Origin: a virus
Lineage: Duplodnaviria; Heunggongvirae; Uroviricota; Caudoviricetes
Reading direction: 5' to 3' (one strand)
DNA length: 64,000 nt
Virus record (IMG/VR): IMGVR_UViG_3300026382_000001
The position numbers and the translations under genes are program-made. Positions 24,346-26,922 of the stretch are shown in pieces (positions within the stretch are counted from its first letter, which is position 1; each line of letters begins with the position of its first letter). A model generated the notes under the pieces. That model made no database searches. It saw only the letters and a list, made by a program, of their open reading frames with translations, and was not told the origin of the DNA.

Positions 24346-26922
24346 ATGATTTACAAAAACTTAACGACAGAAGTATTAGAATTAGTAACTGAGAGTATAA
24401 CAGAAGCAAAAGCGAATGGTATTATTGATAACCATCCGGGTATTTTATTAAAAGTTATCTTATCGAAAGATACTATTCTTAGGAATATTCTTGAGGATTT
24501 AGAGATTGATATTAACGGTATTTTTAATACTATTGAAGATCAAATTAAAAATGATCCTATTAAATACGGTGAAGATGCAGATACTTCATTTGGTTCATTC
24601 ACTCCGGAATATCTTAAATTATTCGAGGTCGCTCATGATTTAGCTTTACGAAATCAAGATAAATATTTAGCACTAGATATTTTAATTATTGCTGGAATTA
24701 GTTCTGGTAATTCATTTTTCACTTATCTTGATCAATTTTTAGATCTAGAACTTTTAGAGATGTATCTTAAATCGCTAAGAGGAGATAGAAAAATTAACGA
24801 AAAAAGTTTTAAAGAGCAAAGTTTCTTAACAACTTTTTGTATCAATTTAAATGAAAAATATTTGGCCGGTGAATGCGATTTGGTTCATGGTCGAGTAGAT
24901 GAAATTGATAGAGTGGCGAATATTCTTAGTAAACGTACTAAGAATAATCCTATTTTAGTTGGTGAACCGGGTGTTGGTAAAACGGCTATTGCTGAAGGAA
25001 TGGCAGGTAAAATCGTTAACCATGAAATTGAAAATCTTACCGACGTTATCATCTGGAACCTTGATCTAACAGCTCTTATGAGTAATGCTGGTAAAGATGA
25101 AGTAGCTGGTCGCATGAATGGATTAATTAAAGAGATTCAAAGAAAAAATAAATTTGAAGATTCTAAAATCGTTCTATTCATTGATGAAATTCATTTAATT
25201 GTTGATAATGCTGGTGGAATGGATTTAGCAAATATTCTTAAACCTGCTTTAGCTCGTGGAGAACTTAAAACAATTGGTGCAACTACTACTAAAGAGTATA
25301 ATAAATACTTTGAAAAAGATGCTGCTATTCAACGTCGTTTCCAATTAGTAAAAATTGATGAACCAGATGAAGAACAATCGTTAGTTATTTTAAGAGGACT
25401 TAGAGAAAAAATCGAAGAGTTTCATAAAATCGAAGTAACCGACGAAGCCTTAGTATCAGCGGTAAAATTATCTAAAAGATATATTACTGATAGATTTTTA
25501 CCAGATAAAGCTATAGATCTTTTAGATGAAGCAGCATCTGTTGTAAGTAATTCGCGATTTATTGAAAGTACCGAAATCAAAAACTTAAGATTAAAAATTC
25601 AAGAAATTGAATTTAAAATTAAGGGTATTGAAAAAAGTATAGAAGCTTCCGATAAAAAAAGTTTTATATCTAAACAACAAACTTATTTAGAGGAGCTTAA
25701 TCAACAGTTAGTTACAACCAAAGAAGAACTTGATAAAATGGTTTCTGAATTTCAATTAGCTAAAGAAAATCGTCAATCAATTATGGTACTAAAAAATGAA
25801 ATTAAAAAAGCTGAACAAGAAGCTTTTGAAGCAAAAGCCGAATTAGATTTAGTTAAAGTAATTGAATTGGAAAAAAATATTATTCCAAAATTACTAAAGG
25901 AAATTAAAGAAATTGAATCGGGTATAGTTTCAATTAGTGTTCAAAAAGGAGATATTTCTTCGGTTGTTGAAAATTGGACAGGTATTCCAATGGAAAAAAT
26001 CAAAGAGGAAGATTCGAATGAGAATATTAAAAATATTCTTAACCTTATGAAAGAACGTGTTAAAGGCCAAGATGAAACTCTAGAAGAGATTTCAAAAGCT
26101 ATCCGTAGAAATAGTGCTGGTCTTTCTAAAGAGGGTAAACCAGTTGGTAGTTTTATGTTACTTGGACCAACAGGTACTGGTAAAACAGAAACTGCTAAAA
26201 GTATTGCTGAAATAGTTTTTGGGGATGCTAAAAATATGGTTAGATTCGATATGTCTGAGTTCATGGAACCACACACGGTATCCAAATTTATTGGTAGTCC
26301 TGCTGGTTATGTTGGACATGATGATGGTGGCCAACTTACGAATGCTATTAAACGCAATCCATATTCTTTAATTTTATTCGACGAAATTGAAAAAGCTCAT
26401 CCAAAAATCTTTGATGTACTTTTACAAGTACTTGATGATGGTAGATTAAGAGATGGTAAAGGTCAAGTGGTAGACTTTAGCAATACAATTATTGTATTTA
26501 CTAGTAATATTGGTGGAAGTGATTTAGCTAATATTCCAAATAAAGTCGTACGTGATAAAGAGAAAATGCGTTTACTTCAAGAAACATATAGACCGGAATT
26601 CTTAAATAGATTGGATTGTATTTCAGTTTTTAATAAACTAGATATGGTTAATCTTATTGAAATTCTAAATCGTAATTTAGATACTCTTGCAGAAAAACTT
26701 TGGAAAGATCGTTATATCAATATTATGGTATCGGATGAGTTTAAAGCTCATCTTATCTCAAGTATTGATATAGAAGCGTTTGGTGCAAGACCTCTTAATA
26801 GATTAATTTCATCTGAAATCGAAGATAAAGTAACCGATTTAATTCTCGATGGAATGTTAGAAATTGGTTCTGAAATTATTTTCGAAATGGCGGATGATAA
26901 AATTATAGTCGAAGTAGTATAA
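24346..26922 (+). CDS. clpB: ClpB/Hsp104-type AAA+ disaggregase (two NBDs plus coiled-coil M-domain)
   Basis: NBD1 has [21 protein letters not shown] and GATT..[16 protein letters not shown]. NBD2 has [37 protein letters not shown] and [28 protein letters not shown]. No ClpP-docking IGF-type loop is seen. ATG at 24346 with RBS AAGGA is preferred over 24268. Confidence 0.75.
   Translation: [858 protein letters not shown]

Follow-up and report, generated by a model that had tools for sequence, protein, structure and literature searches.

A ClpB-type gene was analysed at positions 24346-26922 of a 64 000-nt stretch of Caudoviricetes DNA (IMG/VR record IMGVR_UViG_3300026382_000001), the whole of which is hereafter called the window. 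The gene is best classed as a divergent variant of ClpB that belongs to a phage lineage, and its predicted product fails three canonical ClpB features: the curated family score, the tyrosine Y251 and the tyrosine Y503. Because both the first-ring grip tyrosine (Y251) and the DnaK-docking tyrosine (Y503) are absent, the regulation of the protein is probably unlike that of the textbook disaggregase. Slightly better than even confidence is given to the following reading: the product would be an active threading unfoldase of the ClpB/Hsp104 type, driven mainly by its second nucleotide-binding domain (NBD2), working outside canonical DnaK control and encoded by a vertically inherited phage gene. 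As read from the alignments, the phage clade to which the protein belongs joins the body of a ClpB to two traits seen in relatives or mutants that are independent of DnaK.

Domain layout and active-site residues

The open reading frame (ORF) had been called from the sequence alone, and it is real. The gene, its ribosome-binding site and the domains of its product were placed as follows.

24346..26922, + strand: ClpB-type class-I Hsp100 gene, an ORF of 858 aa plus stop, assigned from profiles, Protein Data Bank (PDB) matches, an AlphaFold 2 (AF2) model and the ratio of non-synonymous to synonymous substitution rates (dN/dS)
24333..24338, + strand: Shine-Dalgarno-like GAAGGA, read from the sequence, with the ATG 7 nt downstream
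24346..24795, + strand: divergent Clp_N-type N-domain, aa 1-150, from a weak Pfam match, column counts and the AF2 model
24796..25545, + strand: NBD1 with a Tyr-less pore loop, aa ~151-400, from alignments and column counts
25546..25935, + strand: M-domain coiled coil, aa ~401-530, from alignment, the AF2 model and dN/dS
25936..26919, + strand: NBD2 and C-terminal D2-small domain, aa 531-858, from alignment and motif search

A purine-rich run also precedes the clpB ATG in the related contigs L001, L028 and L025. A longer version of the gene starting at a TTG at 24268 was considered unlikely, since GAAGGA precedes the ATG at 24346 and since the MIYK start is common to 11 of the 12 relatives in the clade alignment.

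The ClpB model TIGR03346 was aligned with the protein from end to end (residues 9-855 against positions 4-852 of 853). The match scored 735 bits, below the equivalog cut-off of 1232, and the NF008118 model gave 588 bits, below its cut-off of 1417. Other NCBIfam families scored lower than ClpB, with 642 bits for ClpV and 585 bits, in two stretches, for ClpA. Pfam matches were obtained to AAA, AAA_lid_9, AAA_2 and ClpB_D2-small. The PDB sequence matches were to E. coli ClpB, ClpC and Hsp104, with E values of about 1e-160. The AF2 model had a mean predicted local distance difference test (pLDDT) score of 81.7, and full-length chains of ClpC, ClpB and Hsp104 were returned for it by Foldseek. The two-ring AAA+ layout and the M-domain described in the sequence-only reading were recovered, within a full ClpB layout of predicted N-domain, NBD1, M-domain and NBD2.

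The match of the N-domain to Pfam Clp_N (E value 8.8e-4) reached 19.8 bits and narrowly missed the cut-off of 20.7. Clp_N matches are on record for two relatives (P0002 and P0008), and eight helices were modelled by AF2 between residues 8 and 145. The M-domain is a coiled coil, as had been proposed. Its length is 122 aa in every one of the 12 clade sequences, against 120 aa in E. coli, and it was predicted by AF2 as three long helices (409-434, 438-498 and 502-524). In the clade, motif 1 of this domain carries an 8-aa insertion, and a 9-aa deletion follows the domain. A 4-aa deletion was also found in the secondary loop of NBD1, after Walker B.

The motifs of NBD1 are Walker A GEPGVGKT, Walker B FIDEIH, sensor-1 within GATT and the arginine fingers RRFQ. 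Those of NBD2 are Walker A GPTGTGKT, the pore loop GYVGH, Walker B DEIEKAH, sensor-1 TSN, the arginine finger RPEFLNR and sensor-2 GARP. The TGIP linker is present, as WTGIP. The five motifs quoted in the sequence-only reading were all found, at residues 206, 278, 633, 654 and 679. Conservation was counted in an alignment of the 12 clade members, 108 bacterial hits and E. coli ClpB, and residues are numbered according to E. coli. The Walker A lysines K212 and K611, the Walker B glutamates E279 and E678, the sensor residues T315, N719 (sensor-1) and R815 (sensor-2), the arginine fingers R331, R332 and R756, and the NBD2 pore-loop tyrosine Y653 (of GYVGH) are kept in 12 of 12 clade members. Inactivating substitutions in the Walker or arginine-finger residues, which would have spoken against a working ClpB, are therefore not found in any clade member.

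A tripeptide of the form [LIVM]-G-[FLM] was searched for and occurs nowhere in the 858-aa protein. At the position of the IGL of ClpA, in the helix-loop-helix after sensor-1, the protein has the loop ANIPNK (aa 728-733, nt about 26527-26544). The clade reads L-A-x-I-P-N there, against RKSIGLIH in ClpA and IGF, VGF or MGF in viral ClpA/ClpC-like proteins, and A-x-I-P-N is kept in all 12 members. The absence of a ClpP-docking loop noted earlier is borne out by this comparison. Because the loop is absent, the protein would remodel its substrates and not deliver them to a protease. The opposite reading, in which the protein would serve a ClpP-type protease as its ATPase in the manner of the ClpA-like proteins of Rak2-like jumbo phages, was judged very improbable. 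It draws on the fact that the common viral Hsp100s are of the ClpA/ClpC type with IGF/VGF loops, and on the clade-wide conservation of ANIPNK where ClpA has its IGL. Against it, IPN is outside the docking consensus, a long M-domain is typical of ClpB and Hsp104, and no match to the Pfam ClpP family (CLP_protease) was obtained among the window ORFs scanned with Pfam.

The missing tyrosines and control by DnaK

Y251 of the NBD1 pore loop was found in none of the 12 clade members, which have a gap, Gly or Gln at this position; the residue is aromatic in all 108 bacterial hits. The neighbouring K250 is likewise lost in the clade. The bacterial loop AGAKY(251)RGEFE corresponds to AGAGGKGEIE in the other subclade of the clade, and the subclade of the window protein is also Tyr-less. 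In motif 2 of the M-domain, Tyr503 is absent from the clade (0/12) and present in 108/108 bacterial hits. The position is Lys in the window protein, where bacterial ELQY(503)GKIP has become ELEKNIIP, and Thr, Gly, Ser or Val in the relatives. The register at Y503 is secure because it is flanked by the EL and IP anchors, and the alignments at both lost tyrosines are secure because conserved anchors stand on either side. The earlier statement that every hallmark motif of ClpB is present thus held for the Walker, sensor and arginine-finger residues, and did not hold for the NBD1 and M-domain tyrosines. Since the two are missing throughout the clade, the canonical DnaK-coupled disaggregase that the sequence-only reading implied is undercut.

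Both positions have been studied in cellular ClpB. DnaK binds the tip of motif 2, and a Y503D mutant is hyperactive in ATPase and unfolding without Hsp70 (Carroni et al., PMC4023160). The Mycobacterium tuberculosis mutation Y504A abolishes DnaK binding and heat resistance, and the equivalent Y503A in ClpB of Thermus thermophilus or E. coli abolishes the interaction with DnaK (Yin et al., 2021, PMC8209680). The TGIP linker is essential in M. tuberculosis ClpB (PMC8209680). In Francisella, ClpB Y503A loses heat-shock protection and still supports type VI secretion (Alam et al., 2020, PMC7182274); as the role in the type VI secretion system (T6SS) is kept, DnaK-independent functions of ClpB exist. 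For the pore loops, the NBD2 tyrosine (Y653) is essential and AAA2 is the main threading motor; Y251A is partly active, and nearly wild type when ClpB is derepressed (Deville et al., 2019, PMC6593972).

On these grounds, the product is predicted to be a hexamer-forming, ATP-driven, protein-threading unfoldase of the ClpB/Hsp104 type. Its motor would probably be driven mainly by NBD2 and the canonical toggle between DnaK and the M-domain would not gate it, because Tyr503 is lost and because Tyr251, also lost, is dispensable once ClpB is derepressed. The protein may work on its own, or by way of a different partner or target that its conserved N-domain or M-domain recognises. Its substrate would be some phage or host protein assembly or aggregate present during infection. 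The gene itself would be inherited vertically, as a core gene of the early/replication region in a lineage of AT-rich phages of ~200-280 kb.

The main rival is a canonical bi-chaperone disaggregase, which would recruit the host DnaK/DnaJ/GrpE through a co-evolved M-domain interface and clear the aggregates caused by phage protein synthesis or stress. This was held to be possible and rather doubtful. The complete ClpB layout with an M-domain constant at 122 aa fits it, as do the conservation of the TGIP loop, of T7 and D103 and of an aromatic core residue at the W462 position. ClpB is also the best family, over ClpV and ClpA, and the nearest cellular relatives are true ClpBs. It is opposed by the loss of Tyr503, whose mutation abolishes DnaK binding in three species, by the loss of the Lys and Tyr of pore loop 1, and by a score far under the ClpB equivalog cut-off. 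Moreover, no match to Hsp70, DnaJ, GrpE or Hsp20, nor to GroEL/ES, was obtained among the window ORFs scanned with Pfam; the remaining window ORFs were scanned against PHROGs only.

Several points weigh against release from DnaK control, or against the reading of which it is part. Interfaces between ClpB and DnaK are species-specific, and a co-evolved contact without Tyr503 is possible. A hydrophobic residue is kept in the clade at the L495 position. The loss of E432 was not counted, as this residue lies beside the 8-aa insertion and its alignment depends on the placement of that insertion. In the N-domain, D103 is found in 12 of 12 clade members, E109 is an Asp in 12 of 12 and T7 is kept in 11, the twelfth being gapped; we take these to be residues of ordinary substrate-binding ClpB N-domains. 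The window covers 64 kb of a genome of ~280 kb, and a phage Hsp70 or J-protein may lie elsewhere in it; in the phage Atu_ph07, a DnaJ is encoded beside the ClpA. The neighbour-joining (NJ) tree on which the ancestry partly depends (see below) is distance-based, with a bacterial sampling biased to best hits. Finally, the activity of the clade proteins is predicted, from sequence and a structure model.

ClpB/Hsp104 is the model for a threading motor gated by Hsp70 through the M-domain. The phage clade is a natural and strongly selected case in which the whole architecture is kept minus the tyrosine for DnaK docking and repression and the pore tyrosine of the first ring. As it lacks both and keeps the architecture, it would offer a ready-made test of a full-length ClpB without the toggle and with NBD2 as motor. 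The matter would be smaller if the protein simply uses the host DnaK through a co-evolved interface.

Ancestry, upstream signals and genome context

The clpB gene is an old, selected gene of a phage lineage. A search of 5.8 billion proteins returned one identical entry; the 11 other clusters of the clade had 57-83% identity, and several lie on contigs of 204-281 kb. No match fell between these and 43% identity, at which ClpBs of Helicobacter and Campylobacter appear (41-43%). Among 185 579 bacterial and archaeal species genomes (one per species), nothing was found above 41-42% identity. An NJ tree was built from 720 columns with 100 bootstraps. It united the 12 phage sequences with 100% support and placed them, at the end of a long stem (0.31 substitutions per site), outside the bacterial ClpBs sampled, whose own grouping had 73% support. 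A gene copy 91% identical is carried by the IMG/VR contig L001.

Gene order was compared in two other contigs. The order topoisomerase II large and medium subunits, 700-aa protein, metallophosphoesterase, unknown protein, QueC and ClpB is kept in L028 (ClpB 83% identical) and in L025 (59%). In L025, ClpB (59%) and the topoisomerase large subunit (60%) are equally conserved, and the other shared genes less so. The dN/dS values (Nei-Gojobori), a sign of strong purifying selection, were 0.08 against L001 and 0.11 against L028, with no stop codons. By domain, the values against L001 were 0.057 for the N-domain, 0.040 for NBD1, 0.24 for the M-domain and 0.050 for NBD2; the M-domain (0.23-0.24) is relaxed yet still constrained.

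A phylogeny showing a recent host-derived clpB, which the sequence-only reading had allowed for, was not obtained. That the gene is a passively carried or decaying host gene, a view with nothing in its favour beyond the resemblance to cellular ClpB, is so improbable that it was treated as effectively refuted. A recent host origin and inactivation both fail, because the cellular identity is at most 43% among the proteins and genomes searched, the phage clade has 100% bootstrap support on its long stem, synteny holds down to 59% identity, dN/dS is about 0.1 and the catalytic residues are all intact. A Campylobacterota host, suggested by the nearest ClpBs at 41-43%, by a queD similarity and by the 27% GC content, is only a lead. 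No relative was found when the gene and 25 kb of the window were compared by megablast with INPHARED; the sole match was a 100-nt segment of queD in Campylobacter phages. This segment (616-715) has 79-80% DNA identity to the phages CPt10, CP20 and IBB_35, and is the only phage link at the nucleotide level.

Two elements lie between queC and clpB.

24163..24272, no strand assigned: intergenic palindromic array, with three AACTATNNATAGTT units at 24166, 24242 and 24256
24288..24304, + strand: small hairpin GGAGG-ATGAAAA-CCTCC, between the palindromes and the ribosome-binding site, ~40 nt upstream of the clpB start

The array also holds a perfect 22-nt palindrome at 24201-24222. In L001 and L028, clpB is preceded by an array of the same layout, and in L025 by one degenerate unit. 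As RNA, the region 24160-24345 gave a folding z of -5.9. The 14-nt unit AACTATNNATAGTT occurs in 8 perfect copies in the 64 kb. With one mismatch allowed, 10 matches were counted against 1.0 expected, a number reached in 0 of 100 shuffles. The copies at 12784 and 12798 form a 38-nt near-palindrome (12779-12816). The copy at 32472 lies in a perfect 24-nt palindrome, GAGATAACTATTAATAGTTATCTC, followed by TTTTTT, which resembles a terminator (32467-32496). The copies at 45121 and 45200 belong to an element at 45120-45214, between convergent genes, that contains the longest inverted repeat of the window. In L001, a further copy follows the clpB stop codon. AACTATNNATAGTT is a dispersed intergenic repeat family, whose units could be terminator or processing hairpins, or sites for a genome-wide regulator.

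The sequence-only reading had singled out the palindrome at 24164-24269 as the most elaborate of the window and proposed it as an operator of clpB. The palindrome is real and among the strongest in the window; it is not unique, as sister elements exist elsewhere. The operator found no support, because AACTATNNATAGTT is also present in three or more intergenic gaps elsewhere. An operator specific to clpB would agree with the position of the array directly upstream of the gene and with its conservation in L001 and L028. It was nonetheless considered unlikely, given the copies at 12784/12798, 32472 and 45121/45200 and the one after clpB in L001, and given the terminator-like T-run after the 32472 copy. 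The array may just as well terminate or process the queC transcript, or be bound by a regulator that acts genome-wide.

The small hairpin is kept in L028 (about 9950-9966) as CGAGG...CCTCG, a two-sided compensatory change that preserves the pair. A different GC hairpin is found at the corresponding position in L025. No match was obtained with Rfam in the window, and sigma-70 and terminator scans around clpB gave results at chance level. The T4 late-promoter motif TATAAATA was discarded as too frequent in DNA of 27% GC to be informative, so no claim on the timing of expression is made.

The window is densely coded, with 24-31% GC. It encodes T4-type topoisomerase II subunits, an Mre11/SbcD-like phosphoesterase, GTP cyclohydrolase I, ThyX, thymidylate kinase and an N4-gp49-family protein. 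Replication, recombination and 7-deazaguanine genes are found upstream of clpB. Other features of the window are listed below.

431-1033 and 23420-24163, strand not stated: QueD (PTPS) and QueC, by homology; the GTP cyclohydrolase I already named is a FolE homologue
29316-29984, 29987-30274, 34575-35543 and 35540-36316, strand not stated: likely counter-defence/signalling cluster downstream of clpB, by profile matches
46393-50679 and 51071-58372, - strand: giant ORFs of 1428 and 2433 aa, from the PHROG scan

The presence of QueD, QueC and FolE homologues suggests 7-deazaguanine DNA modification. A GGDEF-domain protein (E 7e-13), a Tad2-like anti-Thoeris protein (E 1.7e-23), a NADAR protein (E 5.6e-53) and a metallo-beta-lactamase with a weak Apyc1 match are encoded 2.4-9 kb downstream of clpB. 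For an Acb1 anti-CBASS match (E 1.6e-20), the tool gave no ORF; 41303-41857 is the probable one. A DNA-polymerase fragment (9316-10650) lies between homing/HNH endonuclease ORFs (8216-9340 and 10650-11540). As endonuclease ORFs flank the fragment on both sides, this arrangement suggests a polymerase gene split by mobile endonucleases. In the PHROG scan, no family was matched by the 2433-aa ORF, and only one family, of unknown function, by the 1428-aa ORF. The suggestion that the ClpB might assist the assembly of giant fibre proteins was therefore left without support, as neither ORF matches an annotated phage family.

Comparison with known Hsp100 systems

The closest cellular system is bacterial ClpB (E. 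coli, T. thermophilus, Campylobacter/Helicobacter). The phage protein shares with it the order and lengths of the domains, an M-domain of ~120 aa, 36-43% full-length identity, the Walker, sensor and arginine-finger residues, the NBD2 pore tyrosine, the TGIP linker and the absence of a ClpP loop. It differs by the lack of the NBD1 Lys-Tyr pair and of Tyr503, by the 4-aa deletion in the NBD1 loop, the 8-aa insertion in motif 1 and the 9-aa deletion after the M-domain, by a very divergent N-domain, by its 735 bits against a cut-off of 1232, and by being encoded in a phage lineage.

ClpV/TssH (TIGR03345) was compared through one sequence, WP_223582647 of an Enterobacter plasmid. It is also a class-I Hsp100 without a ClpP loop, and DnaK-independent work on one specific assembly is the mode of action of ClpV. 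Its NBD1 pore loop is Tyr-less like that of the phage clade, with nearly the same letters (AGAGVKGEFE in TssH, AGAGGKGEIE in the phage subclade without the window protein). TssH is devoid of the motif-2 segment and hence of a Tyr503 equivalent, whereas motif 2 has its full length in the phage protein. The N-domain insertion of ClpV is absent from the phage protein, the score of 642 bits is below the ClpV cut-off of 885, and the genes nearby (topoisomerase II, an Mre11-like phosphoesterase, QueC and unknown ones) include no T6SS. By score and identity, the phage protein is nearer to ClpB than to ClpV.

A sub-case of the unfoldase reading favoured here is that of a dedicated, ClpV-like disassembly machine, whose N-domain would pick one polymer (sheath-like, defence or replication assembly) independently of DnaK. 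The likeness of the pore loops and the shared lack of Tyr503 are consistent with it. So are the disassembly of T6SS sheaths by Francisella ClpB without DnaK and the counter-defence genes lying 2.4-15 kb downstream (Tad2-like, NADAR and Apyc1-like, and the Acb1 match without a mapped ORF). This sub-case seems unlikely, as the ClpV model scores below both its own cut-off and the 735 bits of the ClpB model, the ClpV N-domain insertion and a T6SS context are missing, the comparison involves a single TssH and arguments from neighbourhood are weak in phage early regions. A further reading was proposed tentatively, at well short of even confidence: an Hsp70-uncoupled phage ClpB lineage whose first-ring pore would have converged on the ClpV solution, and which, as an autonomous or specifically targeted unfoldase, would dismantle a defined host or phage assembly and not serve as a general heat-shock disaggregase. 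Candidate substrates would then be a sheath-like polymer, or a complex acting in defence, replication or recombination.

ClpG, ClpK and ClpL are DnaK-independent, stand-alone disaggregases, and a functional analogy with them is proposed for the unfoldase reading. Their NBD2 is about 42% identical to that of the phage protein. The ClpG and ClpK models gave 500 and 496 bits in two stretches, for a cut-off of 1900, and their extra N1 domain is absent here. ClpL matched the phage protein over NBD2 only.

Among viruses, the ClpA-like ATPases of Rak2-like jumbo phages (121Q, GAP32, CBB and Atu_ph07 gp292) are also two-ring Hsp100s encoded in very large genomes. They differ from the present protein in having no M-domain and in carrying an IGF loop, and for these two reasons are regarded as ClpP-coupled. 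Atu_ph07 has been reported to encode ClpX, ClpA, ClpB (gp492), ClpP, ClpS and DnaJ (PMC6102473). The protein listed as ClpB, gp492 (L115, 10757-12742), has 661 aa, no N-domain and an M-domain of ~82 aa. Nineteen IMG/VR proteins were aligned, one from the present clade (L001) and 18 others. In 17 of these 18, the M-domain measures 1-59 aa, against ~120 in ClpB; most of the 17 keep a KYRG (or KFRG) pore loop 1, and most carry IGF, VGF or MGF. The exception (L002, IMGVR_UViG_3300028534_000514, 9569-12382 of an unrelated 281-kb contig) is a ClpB-like protein of 937 aa with an M-domain of 133 aa. It is also devoid of Y251 and Y503, with Ala at the Y503 position. Together, gp492 and the L002 protein form a second viral Hsp100 lineage, with no ClpP loop and a Tyr-less pore loop 1 of the form A----TGD(I/M)E. 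As this lineage also lost the pore-loop-1 tyrosine, viruses may have re-purposed Hsp100 motors more than once. The 735-kb uncultured phage LR756503 (L113, 1402-3636) encodes an Hsp100 of 744 aa that has both NBDs and an N-domain and is devoid of an M-domain and of an IGF loop, a layout that resembles ClpB minus its M-domain.

Full-length matches from a tblastn search of INPHARED were not used, as they were mostly to unannotated small contigs, some of them bacterial-looking (H11, for instance, belongs to Salmonella enterica). The literature searched yielded no functional study of a phage ClpB. The sequence-only reading had called a complete ClpB unusual in a phage, and this agrees with the survey, in which the other viral Hsp100s examined were of the ClpA/ClpC type with IGF/VGF loops or were truncated. 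Within this limited survey, the complete N-NBD1-M-NBD2 layout, as predicted from the alignments, was seen only in the present clade. The unfoldase reading would thus add a protease-free remodelling motor to the jumbo-phage toolkit, where ClpA-like ATPases are the usual Hsp100.

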